Below, piece after piece: positions 5,236 to 63,123 of a DNA stretch of 64,000 nt. Where the stretch lies: contig VHCW01000004.1 in the NCBI GenBank assembly GCA_016871575.1, positions 10,938 to 74,937 on the forward strand, given 5' to 3'. Position 1 is the stretch's first letter, and every line of letters starts with the position of its first letter. The notes below the pieces were generated by a model. That model made no database searches, was not told the DNA's origin, and was given only the letters and a program-made list of their open reading frames with translations. This DNA is from Verrucomicrobiota bacterium. Lineage in GTDB: Bacteria; Verrucomicrobiota; Verrucomicrobiia; Palsa-1439. Made by a program: the position numbers and the translations under genes.

Positions 5236-7515
5236 ATGAACATTACACCTGAAGTCATCGCCAAACACGGAATCACGCCGGACGAATACGAGCGGATCAA
5301 ACAAATCCTCGGCCGCGAGCCGAATATCACGGAGCTGGGCATCTTCTCCGTGATGTGGTCGGAGCATTGCAGCTACAAGAACTCCAAGCCGGAACTGAAG
5401 AAGTTCCCGCGCGAGGCCGATTTCATCCTCGTGAAGGCGGGCGAGGAGAACGCCGGGATCGTGGACGTCGGCGACGGCTGGGCCATCGCGTTCAAGATCG
5501 AGTCGCACAACCATCCGAGCGCGGTCGAGCCGTTCCAGGGCGCGGCGACGGGCATGGGCGGCATCATCCGCGACATCTTCACGATGGGGTCGCGTCCGTT
5601 GATGGGATTCGATTCGCTGCGGTTCGGGCCGATCGAGGGCGACTCGGCGCAGGCGGCGACGAACCGGCGGTTGTTCGCGGGCGTGGTGGCGGGCATCGCG
5701 CACTACGGCAATTGCATCGGCATTCCGACGGTCGGCGGCGAGGTTTATTTCGACGAGTCGTACAACGGCAATCCGTTGGTGAACGCGCTTTGCCTCGGCA
5801 TCATTCGTCACGACCAGATCAAGCGCGGTTGCGCGAAGGGCGTCGGCAACCCGGTGATTTACGTCGGCAGCGCCACGGGCAAGGACGGCCTCGCGGGCGC
5901 GGCGTTCGCGTCGCGCGAACTGACCGAGGAATCGCACGAGGACCGCCCGGCGGTGCAGGTCGGCGACCCGTTCATGGAGAAACTGTTGCTCGAAGCGTGC
6001 CTGGAGGTGATGCGCAAGAACGGGCTGGTCGTTGGCATTCAAGACATGGGCGCGGCGGGGCTGACCTGTTCGACGTGCGAGACGGCGAGCCGGGGCGGTT
6101 CCGGCAACGAGATTGATCTGAACCTCGTCCCGAAACGCGAGACGGGCATGACGCCGTACGAAATCATGCTCAGTGAATCGCAGGAGCGGATGTTGCTCAT
6201 CGCCAACAAGGGACGCGAGAAAGAGGTCGAGGAGATTTTCCGCAAGTGGGACCTCCACGGCGTCACGATTGGCAAGGTCACCAACGACGGCATGATGCGG
6301 ATCAAGGTCGGCAAGGAAATCGCCGCCGAGATTCCCGCGGCGAAGCTGGCGGACGACGCACCGGTCTACCATCGGTCTGTCGAACAGCCCGAATGGGAAA
6401 TTCGAAACTCGAAATTCGAAACCCGAAGTGTTCGTGAGCCGCGCAACTGTCAGACGATTCTGCCGAAGCTGTTGGCATCGCCGACGATTGCGTCGAAGAA
6501 CTGGGTGTACCGGCAATACGACCACATGGTGCAGGACGGCACAGCGGTTGTACCGGGAAGCGATGCGGCGGTGATTCGGATCAATTTGAAACGCCCCGAT
6601 TTCGGTTACACGCCGAAGAAGGGCGAGCCGACGGAGAAATACATCGCGTTCACGACCGATTGCAACGGCGCCTACTGCTACCTCGACCCGTACGAAGGCG
6701 GCAAGACAGCGGTGGCCGAGGCGGCGCGCAATCTCGTGTGCAGCGGAGCGCGTCCGTTGGCGGTGACGGATTGCCTGAACTTCGGCAACCCGATGGATCC
6801 GCACATTTTCTGGCAATTCCGGCGCTGTGTGGATGGACTGTCGGAAGGTTGCCGGGCATTTGGCACGCCGGTGACGGGCGGCAACGTGAGTTTCTACAAC
6901 GAATCGCCGGTGGCCGCGATTGACCCGACGCCGACGGTCGGGATGCTCGGCCTGATTGACGACCCGAAACACATCACGACACAGTGGTTCAAGGAATCGG
7001 GCCACGTCATCCTCTTGCTCGGCGACATCGGCGACGAACTCGGCGGCAGCGAGTACCTGAAGCGCATCCACGGCCTGAAGACCGGCAAACCGCCGCGAAT
7101 GGATTTGGCCGTGGCGAAACGGACGCATGATTTTGTGTTGGAGATCATCAAGAAGCGCTGGGTCGCCAGCGCCCACGATTGCAGCGAAGGCGGCCTCGCC
7201 GTCGCGCTGGCAGAGAGTTGTGTCTCCAACGGCGATTGCATGGTCGGCGCGAGGGTGAACGTGAGCCAATTCAAGCAGCGCGTGGACGCGACGTTGTTCG
7301 GCGAAAGCCAGAACCGGATCGTCATCAGCGCCACAAAGACCAACGCCGACAAGATCATGAAAGCAGCGGCGAAAACAGGCTTGCCCGTGACGAAGCTCGG
7401 CGCGACCGGTGGCAGGACGCTGAAGATCAATACCGCGAAAGGCGAGCTTTCTTATGAGGTCGCCAAGCTCCGGGACCTGTGGTGGAACGCGATTACCCGC
7501 ATCATGGAGCGGTAG
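5236..7515 (+). CDS. purL: phosphoribosylformylglycinamidine synthase subunit PurL (small type)
   Basis: [58 protein letters not shown] motifs. Confidence 0.98.
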
Positions 7516-9519: not shown

Positions 9520-9618
9520 GATTCGACCGCCAACGATTCCGCCGAATCGTCACTTGGCAGCGGATGGGGTTGCTGGTAGATTGCTGGAAATTTCACAAGC
9601 AGAAGTGTAGCAGCACGC

Positions 9619-11061
9619 ATGAACGATGACCAATCAGAATTCTCTCCCCTGCGCAAGGTCGCCTTGCTGGCGTGTCTGCTCTCGGTGGCCGCCGACCAGC
9701 CGCAATGGGGCGAACGTTACACCCGCAACATGGTCTCATCGGAAACCGGCCTGCCCGATTGCTTCGATCCCGCCACCGGCACGAACGTGAAATGGTCGGC
9801 CGCGCTCGGCACCGAAACTTACAGCACACCCATCGTCGCCGGCGGCCGCGTCCTCATCGGCACCAACAACGAAACGCCGCGCGATCCGCAACACACCGGC
9901 GACCGCGGCGTGTTGATGTGTTTCGACGAACGCGACGGGCGGTTCTGCTGGCAGTTGGTCTGCCACAAGATCACGACTAGCCCGTTCTGGGACTGGCCGC
10001 GCGACGGGATGTGTTCACCCGCCACCGTTGAGAGCAACCGCGTCTATATGGTCACCAACCGCGGCGAAGTCCTTTGCCTCGACCTCTACGCGAAGAAGAC
10101 GACGCTCACCGAGGAGGACGCCTTCTGGCGGTTCGACATCATCAAGGAATGCGGCGTCCGCCAGCACGACTCCGCGCACTGTTCCATCCTGATCCACGGA
10201 CGGTTCCTCTACATCAACACCTCCAACGGCCTCGACGACGCCCACAAGACCATCCCGTCGCCCGATGCGCCGAGCCTTATCGTTCTTGACAAAACCACCG
10301 GCAAACTCCTCGCGCGCGACAACGAGAACATCGGGCCGAACATCTTCCACAGCACGTGGTCGTCGCCGGCGCTCGGCGAAGCCGGCGGTCGCCCGCTCGT
10401 GTTCTTCTGCGGCGGCAACGGCATCGTCTATGCCTTCGAGACCGTCACTCTCAAGAAAGTCTGGCAGTACGACCCCGACCCCGCTGCGCCCAAAGAGAAT
10501 GTCCACAGCTACATCCGCAACCGCAAAGTCAGCCCCAGCAACATCAAGAGCATGCCCGTCTTTCACAATGGCCGGCTCTACGTCACCGGCGGCGGCGACG
10601 TCTGGTGGGGCAAAAACGAAGCGTGGCTGAAATGCGTGGACGCCGCCACTGGCGTTGAACAGTGGAGTTATCCGCTCGAACGCCATTGCATGAGCACCCC
10701 GGCGATTGCGGGCGGTCTCCTGTTTGTCGCCGATTGCGGCCAGAAACTTCACTGCGTGGACGCCGCCACCGGCGCGCCGCATTGGACGCACGAGACGGGC
10801 GGCGACATGTGGTCCTCGCCGCTGGTTGCCGACGGCAAAGTCTATATCGGCACCCGACGCGGCGACTTCCAGATTCTTGCGGCATCCAAAGAAAAGAAAC
10901 TTCTCTGCTCCGTGAAACCCGGCGGTCCCATCCACGCCACCGCCACCGCCGCCAACGGCGTTATCTATGTGGCAACGATGAAAAGACTCTTTGCCATCTC
11001 CGCCGGTTGCGTTTCGGCGCCGACTTCGACTTCCATCACGGGCGCTCCGCAAGCGCGATAG
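9619..11061 (+). CDS. PQQ-binding-like (BamB-type) beta-propeller protein
   Basis: Repeated S[ST]P..A.G.V and DA.TG...W motifs; signal-like N-terminus. Confidence 0.9.
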   Translation: MNDDQSEFSPLRKVALLACLLSVAADQPQWGERYTRNMVSSETGLPDCFDPATGTNVKWSAALGTETYSTPIVAGGRVLIGTNNETPRDPQHTGDRGVLMCFDERDGRFCWQLVCHKITTSPFWDWPRDGMCSPATVESNRVYMVTNRGEVLCLDLYAKKTTLTEEDAFWRFDIIKECGVRQHDSAHCSILIHGRFLYINTSNGLDDAHKTIPSPDAPSLIVLDKTTGKLLARDNENIGPNIFHSTWSSPALGEAGGRPLVFFCGGNGIVYAFETVTLKKVWQYDPDPAAPKENVHSYIRNRKVSPSNIKSMPVFHNGRLYVTGGGDVWWGKNEAWLKCVDAATGVEQWSYPLERHCMSTPAIAGGLLFVADCGQKLHCVDAATGAPHWTHETGGDMWSSPLVADGKVYIGTRRGDFQILAASKEKKLLCSVKPGGPIHATATAANGVIYVATMKRLFAISAGCVSAPTSTSITGAPQAR

Positions 11062-55957: not shown

Positions 55958-57301
55958 ATGACTCGACGTGACTTCGTCCGCACCACGGCGGCAACCACTG
56001 CCGCTCTCACTTGGCTCGGCGCCAAAATCGCCCCCAACGTTTTCGCTGCCGATGCCGGGAAACCCGCCCTGCTCGGCGGCCAACGCGCCCACCCCGGCGG
56101 CTGGCCGAAATGGCCGGATTGGCGGAAAGAATGGGAACCCGAAATCCTCGACATCCTCCGCAGCGGTCGCTGGTCCCGCGCCGGTAGCGGCGGCAAAGTG
56201 CCGGTCTTTGAGGAGGAATGGGCGAAACTGCTCGGCGCGAAGAAAGCGTTGGCCACGGCCAGCGGCACGACCGCGCTCATCACCAGCCTCTATGCGGTCG
56301 GTGTGGATGCCGGCGACGAAGTGATCGTCGCGCCCTACACGTTCATTGCCACCTACAATTCCGTCCTGATCCAGAAAGCGTTGCCCGTGTTCGCCGACAC
56401 CGATCCCGAGACGTTCACCATGGACCCGAAATCCATCGAGAGCCGGATCACCGAGCGCACCAAGGCCATCCTGCCCGTCCACATCTACGGCATGCCGTGC
56501 TACATGGACGAGATCAACGCCATCGCCAAGAAACACAAACTCGCCGTCGTCGAGGACGCCTGCCAGGCGTGGCTCGCCGAGTACAAAGGCCGCAAGTGCG
56601 GCACGCTCGGCGACCTCGGTTGCTTCAGCTTCCAGAACTCCAAGCACATCCCCTCCGGCGAAGGCGGCGCCGTTACCGGCATGAATGAGAAGCTGGTGGA
56701 CAAATGCCATTCCTACCACAATTGCGGGCGTTCCTTCGGCGCCAACACCGGCACCGGCAGCTTCACTCGCGGCAATAACTTCCGGATGCAACATTTCCAA
56801 GCCTCCATCCTCCTCTCGCAGTTCGAGAAGCTGAAGAAGGAAACCGCGCACCGCCAAGCGAATGCCGACTACCTGATCGCCGGGCTGAACGAAATCGGCG
56901 GCATCGCCCCCGCGCGGCTGCCGGAGAAGAGCCGCGCGGTCTGGCATGTGTTCCCGATGCGTTATGACGCGACACAATTCAACGGCCTGACAAAAAGCCA
57001 GTTCATGAAAGCGCTCAGCGCGGAGGGTATTTCCAGTGGCGGCGGCTATCACGAGCAATACAACGACGGTCTGCTCGACGAAGCAATCAACTCGGCCGGC
57101 TACAAACGACTTTGGAACGTCAAGCGCCTGAAAGCCTATCGCGAGAGCTTCAAGGATTTGAAAGGCAACGCCCAAGTCTGCGCCAACATGGTTCGAATCT
57201 CCCAGAACATGCTTTTGGCCGACCGCAGCGCCATGGATCACATCCTCGACGCCATCCGCAAGATCAAAGCTTACAGCGCCGAGTTGGCGAAGAAGGCGTA
57301 G
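55958..57301 (+). CDS. DegT/DnrJ/EryC1/StrS aminotransferase with Tat signal
   Basis: TRRDFV; ASGTTAL, PVHIYG, EDACQA, SFQNSK (PLP lysine), GEGG. Confidence 0.93.
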   Translation: MTRRDFVRTTAATTAALTWLGAKIAPNVFAADAGKPALLGGQRAHPGGWPKWPDWRKEWEPEILDILRSGRWSRAGSGGKVPVFEEEWAKLLGAKKALATASGTTALITSLYAVGVDAGDEVIVAPYTFIATYNSVLIQKALPVFADTDPETFTMDPKSIESRITERTKAILPVHIYGMPCYMDEINAIAKKHKLAVVEDACQAWLAEYKGRKCGTLGDLGCFSFQNSKHIPSGEGGAVTGMNEKLVDKCHSYHNCGRSFGANTGTGSFTRGNNFRMQHFQASILLSQFEKLKKETAHRQANADYLIAGLNEIGGIAPARLPEKSRAVWHVFPMRYDATQFNGLTKSQFMKALSAEGISSGGGYHEQYNDGLLDEAINSAGYKRLWNVKRLKAYRESFKDLKGNAQVCANMVRISQNMLLADRSAMDHILDAIRKIKAYSAELAKKA

Positions 57302-57358
57302 TCATTGTATGAATGCATATCAAGTGATGCTGGCGGCGCTTCTTGTTCTTATAGCATG

Positions 57359-57544
57359 GGACCAACCGTGGTTGGCCAAAACATAGCATTTGAGGTCTCT
57401 GTTGTTTCTTTGGGTGACATCAAGGAGGAATGGCACGCGAAAGCGATGAAAGCCAGACCGTATGTGTCGGCCACGATGACCTACTCCAAGAAATACGAGG
57501 CCAAGTATGCGGTGGATGGGAATCCGCAAACCGAGTGGGTGTAG
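57359..57544 (+). pseudogene. possible fragment of a discoidin/F5-8-like domain gene, lower GC
   Basis: VSATMTYSKKYEAKYAVDGNPQTEW resembles the A.DG...T.W motif; no convincing start. Confidence 0.35.
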
Positions 57545-57641
57545 AAAGGACCGTTCGGAAAGATCTCGTTCAAGATGTCTGCTGCGATCCGTTGTTCGTT
57601 GATTATCGTGGAAGCACGAAGATGGTCGTGATCAACTCCTG

Positions 57642-57843
57642 ACTCTGGACAAGTTTCTCAGATAACCTTGCAGCGCACTTCTGTCGATACATGTCACTGA
57701 CGGGAATCGGTGTTCATCGCAACAAGCAATCCGCCTTCGCTGAAGCTTCGGCGGACAGGCCCGCCAGCGGCGGACAAGTCACGCCACGCGGACAGGTCGG
57801 CGGACACGATGGCGGACAAGACCAGCGTCAGTTTCTGATTCTT
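57642..57843 (+). repeat. cassette-flanking direct repeat, copy 1 (five GCGGACA units in the tail)
   Basis: actctggac...cttctgtcgatacatgtcactgacgggaatcggtgttcatcgc...gcaatccgccttcgctgaagcttcggcggaca...gtcagtttctgattctt. Confidence 0.9.
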
Positions 57844-57895
57844 TTGAGTCTGTCGCCATGCTTGACTCGGTTGATGGAACCGTTATGCTGAAGCC

Positions 57896-58123
57896 GTGAA
57901 GACTGTCGCAAATAGACCGACGCAGCCCGCGCTTCTTGAGCATTTCCGTGCGGCGAAAGCCGCGGATCGGAAACGCGATTGGCGTCGTCTTGCGCGGAAA
58001 GAGGTCACTCCCAAACAGGCGCAAGCTGAGAATGCTCTCTTTGCGCGTTGCGCGAAACTTCAAATTTTGAACTTGGCGGAAACCATGGCCTATTTCCGCC
58101 GCCATCAGCAACGTCGTCCATAG
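57896..58123 (+). CDS. small basic protein, putative antitoxin
   Basis: GTG start 6 nt after TTGACT-16-TATGCT; 75 aa; directly upstream of the NTase-like gene. Confidence 0.7.
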   Translation: MKTVANRPTQPALLEHFRAAKAADRKRDWRRLARKEVTPKQAQAENALFARCAKLQILNLAETMAYFRRHQQRRP

Positions 58124-58140
58124 AACGTGGCGGGAGTGCT

Positions 58141-58917
58141 GTGGCTACGTCCCGTCCCCAAACGAAGATCCAAGATTACCGTTCCATTCTCGCGCTGCCG
58201 GAGGGAGCGAATCTGGTGGTTGTCGGCGGACAAGCAGTGAGTATTTGGGCAGACCGTTATCTGGCCACTGAACCGGAACTACGACCATACTTGCCATTCA
58301 CGAGCAAGGACCTCGATGTGTTGGGTGATTACCTTGACCTCGACCATCTGGCCAAGGCAACCGGTTTCAGGAAAGAATCGGCGCCGCGCAAGTTGTTGAT
58401 TCCATCGGCCGGGTACTTGGAGATTCCGAGAGCGGGAGCGCGACCGATCAAGGTTGAGGTATTGAAGCGAATCCACGGCGTCATGACCACGGAAGCGAAA
58501 GCAACGGCTTTGGTCGTCAAACATGAAGGTCTCCGATTCCGTGTCCTACATCCGGTGATCCTGCTGAAAGCGAAATTGGAAGCGGCGGTTGGTTTGCCGC
58601 AGGACAAACCCGGACTGGAACGTCAGGACGTGCGTCATCTGAAGATCATGCTCTTGTGCGTTCGCGGTTTCTTGCGAGAGCTTATCATGGCGGTCGAAAT
58701 CGACAAGCTTCCCGCCAGAGATTGCCTGAACTTGTTGGAAGGAACAATGGCGTTAGCCATGAACCGATCTGGAGTAAAGGCGCTAAAGAAGCATGGCATT
58801 GACTGGACAAGCGCTCTTCCAATAGCCGCCTTGGAACATGTGACGAGTGCGAAGTTGCAAAACTTCCGGGACAAACGTCTGCCCCGATGGCTAGATGTTC
58901 TCCAGTCGTCGAGGTGA
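58141..58917 (+). CDS. nucleotidyltransferase-fold protein (AbiEii/type IV toxin-like)
   Basis: VVVGGQAV...TSKDLD (GG + DxD), VLHPVILLKAK, RQDVRHL; GGGAG RBS. Confidence 0.75.
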   Translation: MATSRPQTKIQDYRSILALPEGANLVVVGGQAVSIWADRYLATEPELRPYLPFTSKDLDVLGDYLDLDHLAKATGFRKESAPRKLLIPSAGYLEIPRAGARPIKVEVLKRIHGVMTTEAKATALVVKHEGLRFRVLHPVILLKAKLEAAVGLPQDKPGLERQDVRHLKIMLLCVRGFLRELIMAVEIDKLPARDCLNLLEGTMALAMNRSGVKALKKHGIDWTSALPIAALEHVTSAKLQNFRDKRLPRWLDVLQSSR

Positions 58918-58934
58918 CCCGTTGTCAATTCCCC

Positions 58935-59059
58935 ACTCTGGACGGATCTTTCAGGCTACCTTGCGGCGCACTTCTGCCGATGCTTGTCACTGACCGGCAT
59001 CGGTGTTCATCGCAAAGGGCAATCCGCCTTCGCTGAAGCTTCGGCGGACAAGTCGGCGG
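58935..59059 (+). repeat. cassette-flanking direct repeat, copy 2
   Basis: actctggac...cttctgccgatgcttgtcactgaccggcatcggtgttcatcgc...gcaatccgccttcgctgaagcttcggcggacaagtcgg. Confidence 0.9.
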
Positions 59060-59126
59060 CCACGACGATTTTGTTCGAAGCAGAACCAGCTTGTCAACGC
59101 AGGATCAATTGCGCAGGATATGTCCG

Positions 59127-59366
59127 ATGAGATTCGAAGTTGTTGGGAACATTCGTCAAATCGAAGCCATCGCCACCGGTGGAGGAATCCGCATTTTGCG
59201 TTACCTGCGCAAGCAGCATGGGGATGGGCGCTGGCGCAAGTTGAAAGGCGTCGCCGAAGTTCGGCTTCCCAACGGGGCGCTGCGCACAGTGGAGTTGCAT
59301 TGGTACGAAGCTCACGGTATTGGTAAGCGTGACATGAAGATTAAGCGGTATCTGGAAACGCCATGA
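59127..59366 (+). CDS. small basic putative toxin (79 aa)
   Basis: WRKLKG...ELHWYEAHGIG...KIKRY; ATGA coupling to an acidic partner. Confidence 0.8.
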   Translation: MRFEVVGNIRQIEAIATGGGIRILRYLRKQHGDGRWRKLKGVAEVRLPNGALRTVELHWYEAHGIGKRDMKIKRYLETP

Positions 59367-59596
59367 AGACAACCAAACACCAATTTGCTCTTTGTCTGGA
59401 CAACACCGATTACGAGGCCTCATTGATTTGCGGGAAAGTCTATCCGGTCGTCTCCGATCCGAACGCCGCGAAAGATGCGTTGCTGCGAGTGATTGACGAG
59501 GACGGCGAGGACTATCTCTTCCCTGAAGACCTGTTCGCGTTGGTGGATTTCCCGCGTCAGGTGGAAAGAAAATTGCTGGCCCTTGCCAGCGCGTAG
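59363..59596 (+). CDS. small acidic putative antitoxin/immunity protein
   Basis: ASL..GKVY...LRVIDEDGEDYLFP..LF. Confidence 0.8.
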   Translation: MKTTKHQFALCLDNTDYEASLICGKVYPVVSDPNAAKDALLRVIDEDGEDYLFPEDLFALVDFPRQVERKLLALASA

Positions 59597-59627
59597 CCAT
59601 CGGCATTGAATACGGGGTTCTGTAGTC

Positions 59628-59765
59628 GCGCCCTTCTGCCGATGCCTGTCACTGACAGGTATTGGTGTTCATCGCCAAGAGCAATCCGCCTTCGCCAAGG
59701 CTTCCGCCTACGTCAGAACTACGGCGGACAAGTCGGTTTATTGTCCGAGTCAGCTTCTGATTCTT
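59628..59765 (+). repeat. cassette-flanking direct repeat, copy 3 (with nested REP-like unit)
   Basis: cttctgccgatgcctgtcactgacaggtattggtgttcatcgc...gcaatccgccttcgccaaggcttccgcctacgtcagaactacggcggacaagtcgg...gtcagcttctgattctt. Confidence 0.88.
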
Positions 59766-59801
59766 GACTGTTTTCTCGGTAGCGTGTGATATAATCCTGA
59801 C

Positions 59802-60131
59802 ATGATTGATCTGGTCGAACAACGCAGGAAGTCCATCGCGGAATTGTGCCGTCGGCACGAAGTCCGTCGCTTGGAGCTTTTCGGCTCGGCGGCGCGCGGG
59901 GATTTTCAGCCGGCCAAAAGCGACTTGGATTTTGTGGTCCAGTTTGCGCGGACTGGCTACACCGGTTACGCGGATGCGTTCCTTGAATTTGCGGAGGCGT
60001 TGGAAGAATTGTTTGGCCGCAAGGTGGACGTGCTGACGGAACGGATGATTCGAAGTCCGCATTTCCGCGCCGCCGTGGACGCCACGCGGCAGGTGGTCTA
60101 TGAAGAACGAAGCGAGACAAAGACTGCTTGA
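59802..60131 (+). CDS. MNT (minimal nucleotidyltransferase) antitoxin
   Basis: LFGSAARGDF...SDLDFVV, LFGRKVDVL; extended -10 TGATATAAT 6 nt upstream. Confidence 0.92.
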   Translation: MIDLVEQRRKSIAELCRRHEVRRLELFGSAARGDFQPAKSDLDFVVQFARTGYTGYADAFLEFAEALEELFGRKVDVLTERMIRSPHFRAAVDATRQVVYEERSETKTA

Positions 60132-60250
60132 CGTGTTGGAAGCCTGTCGTGCCGTTGAACGATTCGCTCGCGGACGACGAGATCGTATGGGACGTGGTGG
60201 AGAACAAACTGCCGATTCTGTGCCGCCAAGTGGAGAAGTTTTTGAAGTGA
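60100..60250 (+). pseudogene. HEPN/DUF86 toxin with internal deletion
   Basis: MKNEARQRLLDVLEACRAVERFARG joined out of frame to DDEIVWDVVENKLPILCRQVEKFLK*; the RxxxxH region is absent. Confidence 0.85.
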
Positions 60251-60331
60251 CAATCGACGGCTTGGGATTGGGCAAGAAGATTTGAGGGCAAAAAGATTCC
60301 GCAATGTTCTTGCCGGCCGTTAGCGCGGCAT

Positions 60332-60568
60332 GTGGACGAAACCGCCAGAAAACCACCGGTTCTTGCCTCAGCCCCCTGCCACTGCTCCGGCGACGATGCA
60401 GTGGAAACCCGTCCTGATCTTTTCCATCCTCGCCGAGCCTGTGCGCCGGGCGTTGTTGAGGGCGCTGTTGGTGACGATGCCCGACCCGACCGATGGCCGT
60501 CGGTGCCGGTGGTGAAATCGCCGGAAGGCATCGTGATTGATTTCGGTTTCTGCCTGTTGCGGTTGTAA
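60332..60568 (+). pseudogene. probable ArsR-like HTH regulator remnant
   Basis: IFSILAEPVRRALLRAL and DPTDGRR in one frame, VPVVKSPEGIVIDFGFCLLRL* in another; HTH core missing. Confidence 0.45.
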
Positions 60569-60686
60569 CAAATGTTCCCGCCCGCGGCGGATGAACTTCG
60601 GTGGGCCAGCCGGTTTGTTCCGTTCGGGGTGTCTTTGCGCAGATTCGTCAAGAGTCAGGGGTGACTCCGTCACCTATTGCAACTGG

Positions 60687-60704
60687 TTGTAACAACTGTT
60701 ACAA
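60687..60704. promoter_or_regulatory. AT-rich perfect palindrome (candidate operator)
   Basis: TTGTAACA-AC-TGTTACAA upstream of the TMTC-like gene; related ttgtaacaaatgtt at 60563. Confidence 0.55.
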
Positions 60705-60789
60705 ATGTTTGCGACTCCGGGAGAGGGGGCACGGTGAAAAGTTGACTTTGGATGCGCCTGCTGACACACTTTCGTTGCGCCGAGAGACA

Positions 60790-63123
60790 ATGGAGACACA
60801 ACAGCCACAAGAATCCGTTCCGTCCGCCGCCGTGAAGCCGGCCCCGCTGGAGCCGCCGGTGCGCCGGGTGTTGTGGACATCGTGCGGCTGGGCGGCGCAT
60901 CTGGGCGTGGTGGCGTTGCTGGGGACGTTGGTGCTGTTCACGTTTGTCAACACGCTGCGCAACACCGAGTTCGCGCTCGACAACAAATTCATCATCCTCG
61001 AAGACCCGCGCCTGCGGCAGGCGAAATCGGAAAACGTCAAGCTGATCTTTACGCAGGACTACTGGTACCCGAAGGCGGTGAGCGGGCTGTACCGGCCGCT
61101 GACGACGTTGTCCTACCTGTTCAACTACGCGGTGTTGCACAGCGGCGACCGCGCGGCCAGTTACCACTGGATAAACCTGTTGTTTCACTGGCTGAATGCG
61201 GTGTTGATTTATTACTTCGTGTTGGTGCTGATGGACAAGCTCTGGCCGTCGTTGTTGACGGCGCTGCTGTTTGCAATCCACCCGATTGTCACAGAGTCGG
61301 TCACCAACATCGTCGGGCGGGCCGACTTGTTTGCGATGGCTGCCGTGTTGGGGGCGTTTCTTTGTTATGCCAAAAGCACTGTTTCGACCGGCTGGCGCAG
61401 GCTCTTGTGGCTGCTGGTGATGACGGCGGTGACGACGCTGGGCGTGTTCTGCAAGGAAAGCGCGGTCGTCGTGCTGCCGGTGATGGTGTTGTACGATTTC
61501 ACCTACCGTTTCCAACAGCGGGTCGGAAACCGGGCGCTCAACGTGCTGGCCAATGCGTGGGACTTTTTCCTGAAAGGCTACGTTGCGGTGCTGCCGGCGG
61601 TGGCGGTGATGTTTTATGTGCGGTCCAAGGTGTTTGGGAATTTGCGTCCGCCCGAGCTGCCGTTTGTGGACAATCCGCTGATTGATCTCGGCTTCTGGGA
61701 AGCGCGCCTGACGGCGATCAAGATTGTGGGGCGATATTTCTGGCTGTTTTTCTGGCCGGCGCGGCTCTCGTGCGATTACTCCTACAACGAGATTCCGCTG
61801 GTGCAATTCCCGTTGAATAGCTGGGAAGACTGGAAATCGGTCGCTGTGTTGGCGCTGGTGCTGGCGATTGTGGCGTTGGCCGTGCTCAATTACCGCCGGC
61901 ACAAGGCGATCTTTTTCCTCGTCGCGTTTTTCTTCCTGACGTTCCTGCCATCGTCGAACCTGGTGCCGAATCCAACATTCGGGCTGTCGCTGTGGGACAA
62001 CACGGCGTGGTGCATCGGCAGCATCATGGCGGAGCGATTCATGTACCTGCCGTCCATCGCCTACGCGGGGCTGACGGTCATCTTGATTTATGCGCTCTGC
62101 CGGAAAGTGGTTGCGCGGCTGGACATCTCGGCGTGGGCGCAACGCGTCTGGTTGCAGTCGCTGGCGCGCGGTTTCCTCTGCGTGCTGGCGCTGGTGTACG
62201 GCGTCCGGACGTTCTTCCGCAACTACGATTGGGACGACGATGTCCGGCTCTGGACCAAGGCCGCCGAGGTCTGCCCCAACAGTTTCAAGAGCCACAAATC
62301 CCTTGCCTACGCGCTCTACGAAAAAGATCCGCAAGGCAAGAACATTGACCGCATCATCGAGGAAGGCGAAAAAGCCGCGCAGATCACCGACCGCGCGCAG
62401 ATCGTTTTCCTCCACCTCGGCGCCTACTACCGCATCAAGGGCGACCTGCTCTCGCAACGCGGCGCCGACGGCGCGCTGGTTCCCACGCCCGAAAGCAGGC
62501 CCTTCTACCAGAAATCCATCGAGACCTTGCGCCGCGCCGTGCCGTTGGATCACAGCTTCAACAACGAGAACCGGACCAAGGAACTGAAACGCGGACGCAA
62601 ACCGGAAGACATCCCGGACATCGGCAACCACGAGATTTATTGGAACCTTGGCCATTCCTGCATGAGGATCGGCCTCTACAACGACGCCCGCGAAGCTTAC
62701 CGTTACATGCGCCACCTCTCGCCGGCCAATCCCGACGCCTACATCAGCCTCGCGTCCGTTGCCATCGCGCAAAACCGGCTCGAAGAAGCCGCCGTCCACC
62801 TCCTGCAAACACTGCTGCTCGACAACAACCGGCAGGAAGCGCTCCGCACCCTCATCAACGTCTATCGCCAGATTGACCGCGAAGGCACCGCGCTCGTCTT
62901 CTCCCCCGGCACACAGGCGCAACCCCGGCTCAATGCCGACAGCGCGCTCGTCCGCAAACACCTCTGCGCCGCCTACCTCGATCTCGTCCAGGCGTTCATC
63001 GTGGCCAAACAATACGAGCTTGCCCAAAACACCCGCCAGAATGCCCTGGCCGCCTACAGGTGCGAGCCTGGTCCCTTCGACCAACTCATCGCCACCATTC
63101 CGCCCTCCAAACGAAAACCGTGA
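60790..63123 (+). CDS. TMTC-like GT-C membrane glycosyltransferase with C-terminal TPRs
   Basis: YRPLT..SY, YHWINLLFH, LFAIHP..TESV...GRADL, CKESA, L.CDYS, AERFMYLPS, RNYDW, TPR region. Confidence 0.9.
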   Translation: METQQPQESVPSAAVKPAPLEPPVRRVLWTSCGWAAHLGVVALLGTLVLFTFVNTLRNTEFALDNKFIILEDPRLRQAKSENVKLIFTQDYWYPKAVSGLYRPLTTLSYLFNYAVLHSGDRAASYHWINLLFHWLNAVLIYYFVLVLMDKLWPSLLTALLFAIHPIVTESVTNIVGRADLFAMAAVLGAFLCYAKSTVSTGWRRLLWLLVMTAVTTLGVFCKESAVVVLPVMVLYDFTYRFQQRVGNRALNVLANAWDFFLKGYVAVLPAVAVMFYVRSKVFGNLRPPELPFVDNPLIDLGFWEARLTAIKIVGRYFWLFFWPARLSCDYSYNEIPLVQFPLNSWEDWKSVAVLALVLAIVALAVLNYRRHKAIFFLVAFFFLTFLPSSNLVPNPTFGLSLWDNTAWCIGSIMAERFMYLPSIAYAGLTVILIYALCRKVVARLDISAWAQRVWLQSLARGFLCVLALVYGVRTFFRNYDWDDDVRLWTKAAEVCPNSFKSHKSLAYALYEKDPQGKNIDRIIEEGEKAAQITDRAQIVFLHLGAYYRIKGDLLSQRGADGALVPTPESRPFYQKSIETLRRAVPLDHSFNNENRTKELKRGRKPEDIPDIGNHEIYWNLGHSCMRIGLYNDAREAYRYMRHLSPANPDAYISLASVAIAQNRLEEAAVHLLQTLLLDNNRQEALRTLINVYRQIDREGTALVFSPGTQAQPRLNADSALVRKHLCAAYLDLVQAFIVAKQYELAQNTRQNALAAYRCEPGPFDQLIATIPPSKRKP

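Follow-up and report, generated by a model that had tools for sequence, protein, structure and literature searches.

What is the repeat that separates three unrelated pairs of small genes in the genome of an uncultured freshwater member of the Verrucomicrobiota, and does it capture these genes or only accompany them? The element, here called R, occurs as hairpin-rich copies of about 110–220 bases between three small two-gene modules in a window of 64,000 nt (contig C4:10938-74937 of a 5.19-Mb genome in 257 contigs, G000), a stretch that is also present in lake-water metagenomes. Nine sequencing runs contain it, all of them DNA runs available as contigs, with no RNA run among them. The array lies in a 3-kb interval bounded by a gene for a DegT-type aminotransferase and a TMTC-like gene, and GC content is 52–57% over positions 57200-60800 of the window, compared to about 58–69% in most of the sequence windows that flank the interval. 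The initial annotation regarded R as a recombination or insertion site forming a non-integron platform for the capture of toxin–antitoxin (TA) and defense genes. The reading that we favor, at roughly even probability, is that R is a low-copy, genus-restricted mosaic of hairpins of the repetitive extragenic palindrome (REP) type, and not a dedicated TA-capture site.

The three copies in the interval (R1, R2 and R3) are direct repeats, each ahead of a different two-gene module, exactly as first described. Their 80-nt cores (57673-57752, 58966-59045 and 59628-59707), with spacings of 1293 and 662 nt between successive copies, are 86–90% identical to the reference copy of the repeat search, and R1 and R2 have 138 nt in common at 82% identity. 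The likeness between copies is far above chance, since BLASTN against the whole genome gave E-values of 2e-33 for R1/R2, 2e-20 for R2/R3 and 5e-17 for R1/R3. A fourth copy lies on contig C26 (22896-23030), and all four copies of this genome stand ahead of small two-gene modules. A search of positions 57000-61000 with the 4227 covariance models of Rfam returned a single match, SNORD43 at 60966-61000 (E=1.9), which is attributable to chance.

Alignment of the copies from this genome and a sister species (G001) divides R into five segments. The first is a 5' arm, (G)GTCAACTCCTGACTCTGGAC...ACCTTGCGGCGCA, found in R1, R2 and four copies of the sister species (G1_a, G1_b, G1_c and the copy on contig C57), and not in R3. 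Segment 2 begins with CTTCTG, continues as a 13+1+13 palindrome centered on GTCACTGAC (hairpin 1) and ends in the linker GGTGTTCATCGC-AAAGAGCAA. Segment 3 consists of at least one GC-rich hairpin (type TCCGCC...GGCGGACAAG), and is followed by iterations of GGCGGACA (segment 4) and a tail (segment 5). The tail gtcagYttctgattctt is shared by R1 and R3, as the initial annotation stated, while the promoter-like sequence said to follow it did not stand out, with 2 sites found and 1.6 expected in shuffled sequences, and only the R1 site listed. Similarly, a scan for sigma-70 promoters and terminators gave nothing above shuffles, and the terminator scan found no T-run 3' of either hairpin. A role of R as 5' leader to a gene on the minus strand was suggested by GCGATGAACACC, which can be read as a start codon of a 7-codon open reading frame (ORF) ending in the hairpin loop; it was rejected, as the frame lacks a Shine-Dalgarno sequence, its peptide shows no conservation and the genes around it are on the plus strand.

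Hairpin 1 is a 27-nt palindrome with the center GTCA-C-TGAC. In R3 its pairing is complete over 15 positions when G–T wobbles are included, and in R1 it has two mismatches plus wobbles, both in agreement with the initial annotation; for R2, to which two mismatches had also been assigned, we find one mismatch and one wobble in the 13-bp stem. A covariance model built from nine R copies was used to scan the genome and its relatives, as had been proposed, and full-length R was recovered in this genus only, with four copies in G000, five in G001, one in G002 and none in G003. The bare palindrome reaches further, into other genera of this family, as matches of 23–29 nt; a match at E<=0.1 is present in 14 of 45 genomes, while none of 133 genomes from other families of the class has it at E<=0.01. 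Among 33 palindromes collected by this structure-aware model, stem positions 1–11 are paired in 27–33 sequences, and positions 3, 4, 6, 7 and 8 have changed on both sides in ways that keep the pairing, for example from GCC/GGT to AGA/TCT, GGG/CCC or ATA/TAT. The exact pattern of hairpin 1 plus linker was not found in viral contigs, is found among the contigs of the genome collection only in the sister metagenome-assembled genome (MAG), and occurs on nine metagenome contigs, seven of which represent the same three loci as in G001. An asymmetry between G–T and A–C pairs was considered as a sign of the folding strand and was dropped, because stand-alone palindromes occur in both senses.

The second hairpin, tccgcc...ggcgga, is present in R1, R2 and R3, and its description as REP-like is well founded: the genome contains about 47 regular-expression instances of the GC-rich hairpin versus 6 in a reversed-sequence control, and among 36 other genomes of the family, 27 match the REP part of the query. 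In R3 and the C26 copy it reads ...CCGCCTACG...CTACGGCGG, which by inspection gives GTAG on the other strand. Furthermore, the segments reassort among the 12 known copies of R, the mosaic behavior that characterizes REPs and bacterial interspersed mosaic elements (BIMEs). One REP-like variant is common to R1 and R2, a second to R3, G1_b and the C26 copy, and a third to G1_a and G1_c; one type of tail is common to R1, R3 and G1_a, another to G1_b and G1_c; and in four of the other full-length copies the place of the GC-rich hairpin is taken by one of the TTCCGGAA type. Since R3 combines the hairpin variant of G1_b with the tail of R1 and G1_a, the mosaic seems to have been reshaped at several points and not at one crossover site. 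In 8 of the 12 copies, R starts no more than about 50 nt past the stop codon of an upstream ORF in the same orientation.

Classical GTAG-tagged REP pairs are also found in the genus, in the form GTAG + GGCAGGCG...CGCCTGCC and GGCAACCG...CGGTTGCC + CTAC, at L032 840-960 (equivalent to L051 ~6860-6990) and at G000:C28 ~9600-9700. In addition, four copies of the GC-rich hairpin are spread across an island of decayed restriction-modification genes (G000:C44:20000-31500), which on inspection resemble a fragmented type I restriction-modification system.

Eight copies of R are known from outside this genome, five in G001, one in G002 and two on metagenome contigs (L044 and L048), and not one of them is followed by a co-oriented TA module, so that a platform dedicated to TA and defense genes is not supported. 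G1_a lies between a 128-aa ORF that is GIY-YIG-like by eye, with no family match, and a weakly matching DUF2204 nucleotidyltransferase on the other strand. G1_b follows a gene for a PEP-CTERM protein and precedes genes for an IS110 RNA-guided transposase (210.9 bits) and a DUF4357 protein, while G1_c has an unassigned 332-aa ORF upstream and a GTAG-tagged inverted REP pair downstream, followed at about 370 nt from G1_c by a REP-associated tyrosine transposase (RAYT; NF047646, 82.1 bits with a cut-off of 80). The other two copies of the sister species are located between an unassigned 295-aa ORF and a gene for a pectate-lyase-like protein (contig C7), and between two unassigned ORFs and a gene for a GFO/IDH/MocA oxidoreductase (contig C57). 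The G002 copy stands between a SET-domain gene and a winged helix-turn-helix (wHTH) gene, L044 between a 993-aa gene and a gene with a TAT-signal-like start, and L048 has ORFs upstream on the other strand that appear PIN-like and MqsA-like by eye; a hydrolase-like ORF is also among the neighbors of copies elsewhere. A recombinase or RAYT beside a copy, which the initial annotation advised looking for, is therefore present in the sister species, and none is found beside the copies of this genome. The IS110 element adjoins G1_b at the GATTTGTAG point, which is also where G1_c runs on into the GTAG-tagged REP, and comparison of the two sequences suggests that it inserted into a REP beside R. The DUF4357 gene (L052 1246-2085; G000:C28:8651-9581) is 95.9% identical between this genome and the contig of a relative, as compared with 86–90% for neighboring orthologous genes, which suggests a recent exchange.

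Evidence on capture also comes from the comparison of loci between species. The DegT gene is 88% identical to its counterpart on contig C150 of G001, homology stops at 57300, the DegT stop codon, and resumes at 60365, at the start of the wHTH gene; between these points G001 has different genes, and only R is common to both species. The content of the interval thus differs between genomes, as the capture proposal anticipated, but the breakpoints, which it placed in the repeat, lie outside it. This holds for the outer breakpoints at three loci, namely the DegT–wHTH interval, the C26 locus, where a 4.4-kb stretch stands in place of a 1.06-kb stretch, and G001:C7, where the 2.4-kb block that is absent from this genome consists of gene-R-gene. 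The linkage of DegT to R is kept in both species with different genes in between, and the same applies to GGT (90% identical) and R, where the genes between GGT and R, and those after R, differ. R3 and G1_b are 93.6% identical over 109 nt, and homologs of modules 1 and 2 occur in other genomes without R. None of the three loci offers a filled and an empty site that differ by R alone. Of the three outcomes that the initial annotation had named as contradicting it, lack of TA enrichment and breakpoints outside the repeat were both observed, whereas identical module content was not.

The circle junctions that a capture mechanism might leave were not shown in the contigs of four lake metagenomes, nor were joints that skip a module, and this negative is weak evidence because contigs drop rare variants; metagenome contigs break inside the GC-rich hairpin, as repeats do. 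A metagenome record with two REP-like sides (59052 -> 57733, with 11 other letters between) was considered as a circle junction and is most simply another REP cluster. Loose contig ends at 60266-60271 were likewise rejected as clean breakpoints, as they come from diverged relatives.

The absence of integron features stated at the outset is upheld. Pairs of RYYYAAC...GTTRRRY boxes 40–150 nt apart number 0 on either strand of 57200-60800 (shuffles gave a mean of 0.56), and the four PF00589 matches of the genome are all on other contigs (C32, C70, C1 and C2). The two contigs that carry R, C4 and C26, contain no tyrosine recombinase, Y1 transposase or RAYT. The proposed enzyme encoded elsewhere has candidates, as the genome has 10 matches to the RAYT family NF047646 (5 over the cut-off, none on C4 or C26), while a role of R as a recombination or insertion site seems unlikely. 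The G001 IS110 used as a query found no homolog in this genome. Across the genus, RAYT-family matches number 3–15 per genome.

The features of the interval are listed below, together with the parts of each copy of R.

Table. Features of the interval and its flanks, in window coordinates.
Feature	Position	Strand	Description
DegT/DnrJ-type aminotransferase	55958..57301	+	Pfam PF01041, E=5.7e-92; conserved left flank of the variable interval
Short ORFs	57305..57642	+	79 and 70 aa (ORF list); stretch absent from G001
R1	57624-57843	+	Fullest copy, ~220 nt; covariance model 97.9 bits; 5' arm ~57624-57680, hairpin 1 57684-57710, GGTGTTCATCGC linker 57709-57720, REP-like hairpin 57730-57763, about five GGCGGACA iterations 57750-57822, tail 57827-57843
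Module 1 gene A	57896..58123	+	75 aa, GTG start (ORF list)
Module 1 gene B	58144..58917	+	257 aa; GG...SKDxD motif, nucleotidyltransferase-like by alignment inspection
R2	58908-59067	+	Starts 3–5 nt past the module 1B stop codon; covariance model 100.4 bits; 5' arm, hairpin 1 58977-59003, linker, REP-like hairpin 59023-59056; without the shared tail
Module 2 gene A	59127..59366	+	79 aa, basic; invariant HWYEAHG motif
Module 2 gene B	59363..59596	+	77 aa, acidic partner, paired with gene A
R3	59625-59765	+	Without 5' arm; covariance model 87.2 bits; hairpin 1 59639-59665, linker, double REP-like unit 59685-59728, tail 59749-59765
Module 3 MntA-like nucleotidyltransferase	59802..60131	+	109 aa; Pfam NTP_transf_2, E=8.8e-13, 48.9 bits, over cut-off
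HepT/HEPN remnant	60100..60250	+	ORFs 60100-60285 and 60128-60250; middle missing
Broken wHTH (ArsR-like) gene	60330..60568	+	Conserved right flank
TMTC-like tetratricopeptide repeat (TPR) glycosyltransferase	60781..63123	+	Pfam PF08409 and TPR families

Judged by their sequences, modules 1 and 2 are gene pairs that are conserved elsewhere. The first protein of module 1 has no family match in Pfam, NCBIfam or PADLOC. The second had been called a nucleotidyltransferase-fold protein; it has no match in Pfam, NCBIfam, PADLOC or the PDB and shows only the GG...SKDxD motif. Its 48 homologs are all unnamed or named hypothetical, none has a Pfam domain, and G29, W35, P51, S54, D56 and D58 are invariant among them. 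The pair recurs in another genome (G019), where a homologous 74-aa ORF precedes the module 1B homolog. A C-terminal remnant of a module 1B homolog, 76% identical and with 2 stops, was also noticed on G001:C253 (L100), next to a 505-aa gene that has the appearance of a helicase with an endonuclease domain. The proteins of module 2 are without a match in Pfam, NCBIfam, PADLOC or the PDB, and for the two modules a protein atlas returned unnamed clusters only. Gene A nonetheless has at least 7999 homologs of about 70–84% identity, none with a Pfam domain, which are named from Lentisphaerae, Acidobacteria, Nitrospirae and other phyla, and it was found in 3 of 401 Verrucomicrobiota genomes searched. 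The two genes are also adjacent in G306 (79 aa + 72 aa, L128 1495-1953).

Module 3 had been described as an MNT and HEPN pair, and only its MNT side holds. In addition to the Pfam match, the protein matches the NCBIfam MntA model (E=1.7e-10, below cut-off) and PADLOC PDC-S09 (E=4e-31). Its presumed partner is a remnant in which the N-terminal HEPN part and about 22 aa of the C-terminus are read in different frames, and the HepT-like profile matches at positions 98–119 only (E=0.03, 14.5 bits versus a cut-off of 23.5), so only the MntA side of the intact MntA/HepT pair that defines a type VII TA system is present. Downstream of the C26 copy, at the fourth locus, are a DUF6364 antitoxin-like ORF and a VapC gene whose match is confined to its first 44 residues. 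Two of the four toxin genes adjacent to R are truncated, which would be expected of decaying selfish modules.

Outside the modules, the short ORFs next to the DegT gene are probably remnants, and the 79-aa ORF matches no Pfam family. The two pieces of the wHTH gene match residues 5–40 and 90–113 of the intact 113-aa protein of G001; the gene has been broken through internal loss and a frame change. In G000, G001 and G002, this single-copy gene has an R as a neighbor at no more than about 1.6 kb. The direct repeats GGTTGTAACAAATGTT / GGTTGTAACAACTGTTACAAATGTT at 60561-60709 (repeat families D5 and D16), located 5' of the TMTC-like gene, could be an operator.

A REP-type mosaic is not the only explanation of these data. 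R might instead be a recombination site at which an enzyme acting in trans (a RAYT-type HUH, IS110-type DEDD or tyrosine recombinase) inserts circular units of gene(s) plus R, and this would build an integron-like array with R as the attC at the 3' end of each cassette. The single orientation of the direct array, the attC-like position of R, which starts 3–5 nt past the module 1B stop codon and in 8 of 12 copies no more than about 50 nt from an upstream one, the covarying stems, in which a wobble or mismatch persists at position 8, and the strongly conserved flanks CTTCTG and GGTGTTCATCGC are all consistent with such a site. So are the DegT–R and GGT–R linkages, which are kept between species while the cargo between them differs, the identity of R3 and G1_b, which exceeds the 88% of DegT between the two species, and the candidate enzymes in trans, 10 RAYT-family matches and four tyrosine recombinases. 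However, neither R-carrying contig has an enzyme gene, attC boxes are lacking, three repeats accompany three modules with none after module 3, and at three loci the outer breakpoints fall outside R. Moreover, the unit missing in the G001:C7 comparison is gene-R-gene and not gene plus R, module homologs elsewhere lack R, and its segments reassort at several points. Recombination at R in trans is thus unlikely, and an attC-like role at the end of each cassette is equally doubtful. A related proposal is that R serves as the attachment site of an undescribed hairpin-directed cassette system, unrelated to integrons, in which one or two genes with R at their 3' end would be captured downstream of the anchors DegT and GGT by an enzyme encoded elsewhere. 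It would explain the linkage of R to its anchors in two species while the intervening genes are replaced, and it draws on the many RAYTs of the genus and on the IS110 beside a copy in one of its members; both the proposal and this choice of enzymes seem rather improbable.

Alternatively, R may act in cis, either as an operator for a dimeric protein such as the wHTH protein or as an RNA 3' end or insulator between operons. A near-perfect palindrome of 27 bp would be a fitting target for a dimeric protein, R follows the 3' end of its upstream gene and is set between genes of one orientation, the single-copy wHTH gene is near R in three species, and G003, in which the G001 protein as sole query finds no wHTH match, has no R either. 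On the other hand, an operator that is read as sequence would not tolerate the changes seen in the covarying stems, a two-sequence profile does give a weak wHTH-family match in G003 (E=8.7e-5), and none of four loci with wHTH homologs in other genera has R nearby. The orientation relative to the wHTH gene is also inconsistent, the gene is broken in this genome, and an RNA role has to contend with the lack of a T-run after either hairpin and with fold z-scores that are not significant; a regulatory function is therefore improbable. The last candidate, a decayed miniature inverted-repeat transposable element (MITE) that inserted three times near the modules, would account for the copies at non-orthologous places in three species. 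The ends of R1 pair as CTGACTCTGGAC / GACCAGCGTCAG at 10 of 12 positions and form the outer helix of the predicted fold, and the R3 tail GTCCGAGTCAG matches the same arm in inverted form. Nevertheless, terminal pairing is clear in R1 only, where an alternative reading of the ends is an imperfect direct repeat (TCAACTCCTGACTCT / TCAGTTTCTGATTCT, 11 of 15 positions), and no target-site duplication is seen. In addition, the 4–5 copies per genome differ by 10–25%, no locus was found at which R alone separates a filled from an empty site, and no parent insertion sequence (IS) with these ends was found, which leaves a MITE very unlikely. The search for a parent IS, or for more copies of the two ends of R, returned only a shared 16-mer, ACTCCTGACTCTGGAC. 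Its occurrences on contigs C24 and C203 are ribosome-binding regions of minus-strand genes and were judged uninformative for R.

The REP-type reading has difficulties of its own. Hairpin 1 with its linker is low-copy, at four per genome, unlike classical REPs, and shows no evident GTAG or CGTC tag on inspection. The pair counts of its stem are biased towards pairing, because the palindromes came from a structure-aware model, and the predicted fold of R1 is no stabler than shuffled sequences (z = +0.52 on the plus strand and -1.63 on the minus strand). There is no RAYT near any R copy of this genome, and the IS200-like gene on contig C35, the one with flanks read, is flanked by other palindromes. 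Moreover, the comparison rests on MAGs and on two comparable species. A further difficulty is that three of the four genome copies lie within 2.2 kb in one orientation, each ahead of a two-gene module, a regularity that a passive REP-like element does not predict. As this regularity is not fully explained by a REP/BIME origin, site-specific capture, a cis-regulatory role and a decayed MITE are each retained as an outside chance.

The likeness of R to REPs, BIMEs, REP doublets forming hairpins (REPINs) and their RAYTs is nevertheless considerable. R contains short imperfect palindromes with covarying stems, is extragenic and usually just 3' of genes, forms mosaics with other conserved motifs and is confined to a single lineage; in the sister species, one copy has GTAG-tagged REP pairs and a RAYT beside it, and another has an IS110. 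IS110-family elements target REPs. According to one account, REPs occur in Verrucomicrobia (Opitutus terrae), and what defines most REPs linked to a RAYT is a GTAG (or CGTC) tag on one of their ends (PMC3733652). R differs from these systems in that the whole composite has only 4–5 copies per genome, that three copies alternate regularly with two-gene modules, and that no RAYT accompanies the copies in this genome.

Integrons offer a second point of comparison, in particular the cluster of attC sites lacking integrase (CALIN). R likewise forms a direct array of hairpin repeats between unrelated small genes, TA modules included, begins right after an upstream stop codon and has no integrase nearby, and the array has the two or more same-orientation sites separated by cassettes by which such clusters are recognized. 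Unlike attC sites, R lacks R'' and R' boxes, is a mosaic with REP units and does not follow the last module; furthermore, the modules here appear to carry their own start regions, and R copies elsewhere are single and beside ordinary genes. Plasmid dif (pdif) sites are recognized by XerC/XerD, measure 28 bp and alternate in orientation, whereas R copies are direct and 110–220 nt long. The pdif modules of Acinetobacter are described as accessory modules, TA pairs among them, that use short sites and a host-encoded recombinase (PMC6449649 and PMC13141974), and resemble the present array as discrete modules bounded by short repeats. Although the palindrome of R can be parsed as 11-7-11, it has by inspection no likeness to the dif consensus. 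Exchange at the minimal mobile elements of Neisseria is thought to run by homologous recombination, with intergenic repeats inside. There too, different cargo is found between the same conserved flanking genes, in accounts of these elements and of repeat-flanked variable regions (PMC3082526, PMC1538595). In contrast, natural transformation is not known in the uncultured lineage studied here, and two genomes were compared.

We hold, with about even confidence, that R is a BIME- or REP-like mosaic in an accessory-gene hotspot, and a course of events can be proposed on this basis. R is composed of a family-restricted palindrome of the type GATGCCTGTCACTGACAGGTATC, a conserved linker and a variable number of family-wide GC-rich hairpins, and typically starts 0–50 nt past the stop codon of a co-oriented gene in low-GC accessory islands with fast gene turnover. 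Small selfish two-gene modules may have accumulated in the hotspot between the DegT and wHTH genes, while copies of R were probably duplicated or carried in with neighboring DNA and could then have been reshuffled by homologous recombination or gene conversion. As DNA, R might supply homology that travels with it, as well as a hairpin on which REP-directed transposases (RAYT, IS110) could act; as RNA, it might give the upstream transcript a structured 3' end that could terminate or insulate it. Through its homology and its hairpins, R perhaps promotes the hotspot.

If R is only a REP/BIME-like mosaic, it represents a new repeat family in uncultured freshwater Verrucomicrobiota that marks hotspots in which selfish two-gene modules collect and degenerate, a result that is useful for annotation and unsurprising. 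If it is a recombination site, it would constitute a second, non-integron route to cassette arrays, built on hairpins of the REP world, and would link REP/RAYT biology to gene capture. In either case, the conserved modules 1 and 2 are candidate TA or defense pairs, and the HWYEAHG protein is without a family assignment despite its thousands of close homologs.

A second array of a different kind was noticed elsewhere in the genome (L101, G000:C24:22500-32500). It contains at least three minus-strand genes with a common N-terminus, MKRKPQRR..., two of which run on into long poly-Ser linkers and differ in their C-terminal parts, and paralogous genes of 225 and 276 aa are located between them. The upstream region of one of these paralogs and that of the gene on contig C203 have a 16-mer in common with the 5' arm of R. 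The layout of this locus resembles that of polymorphic-toxin loci.

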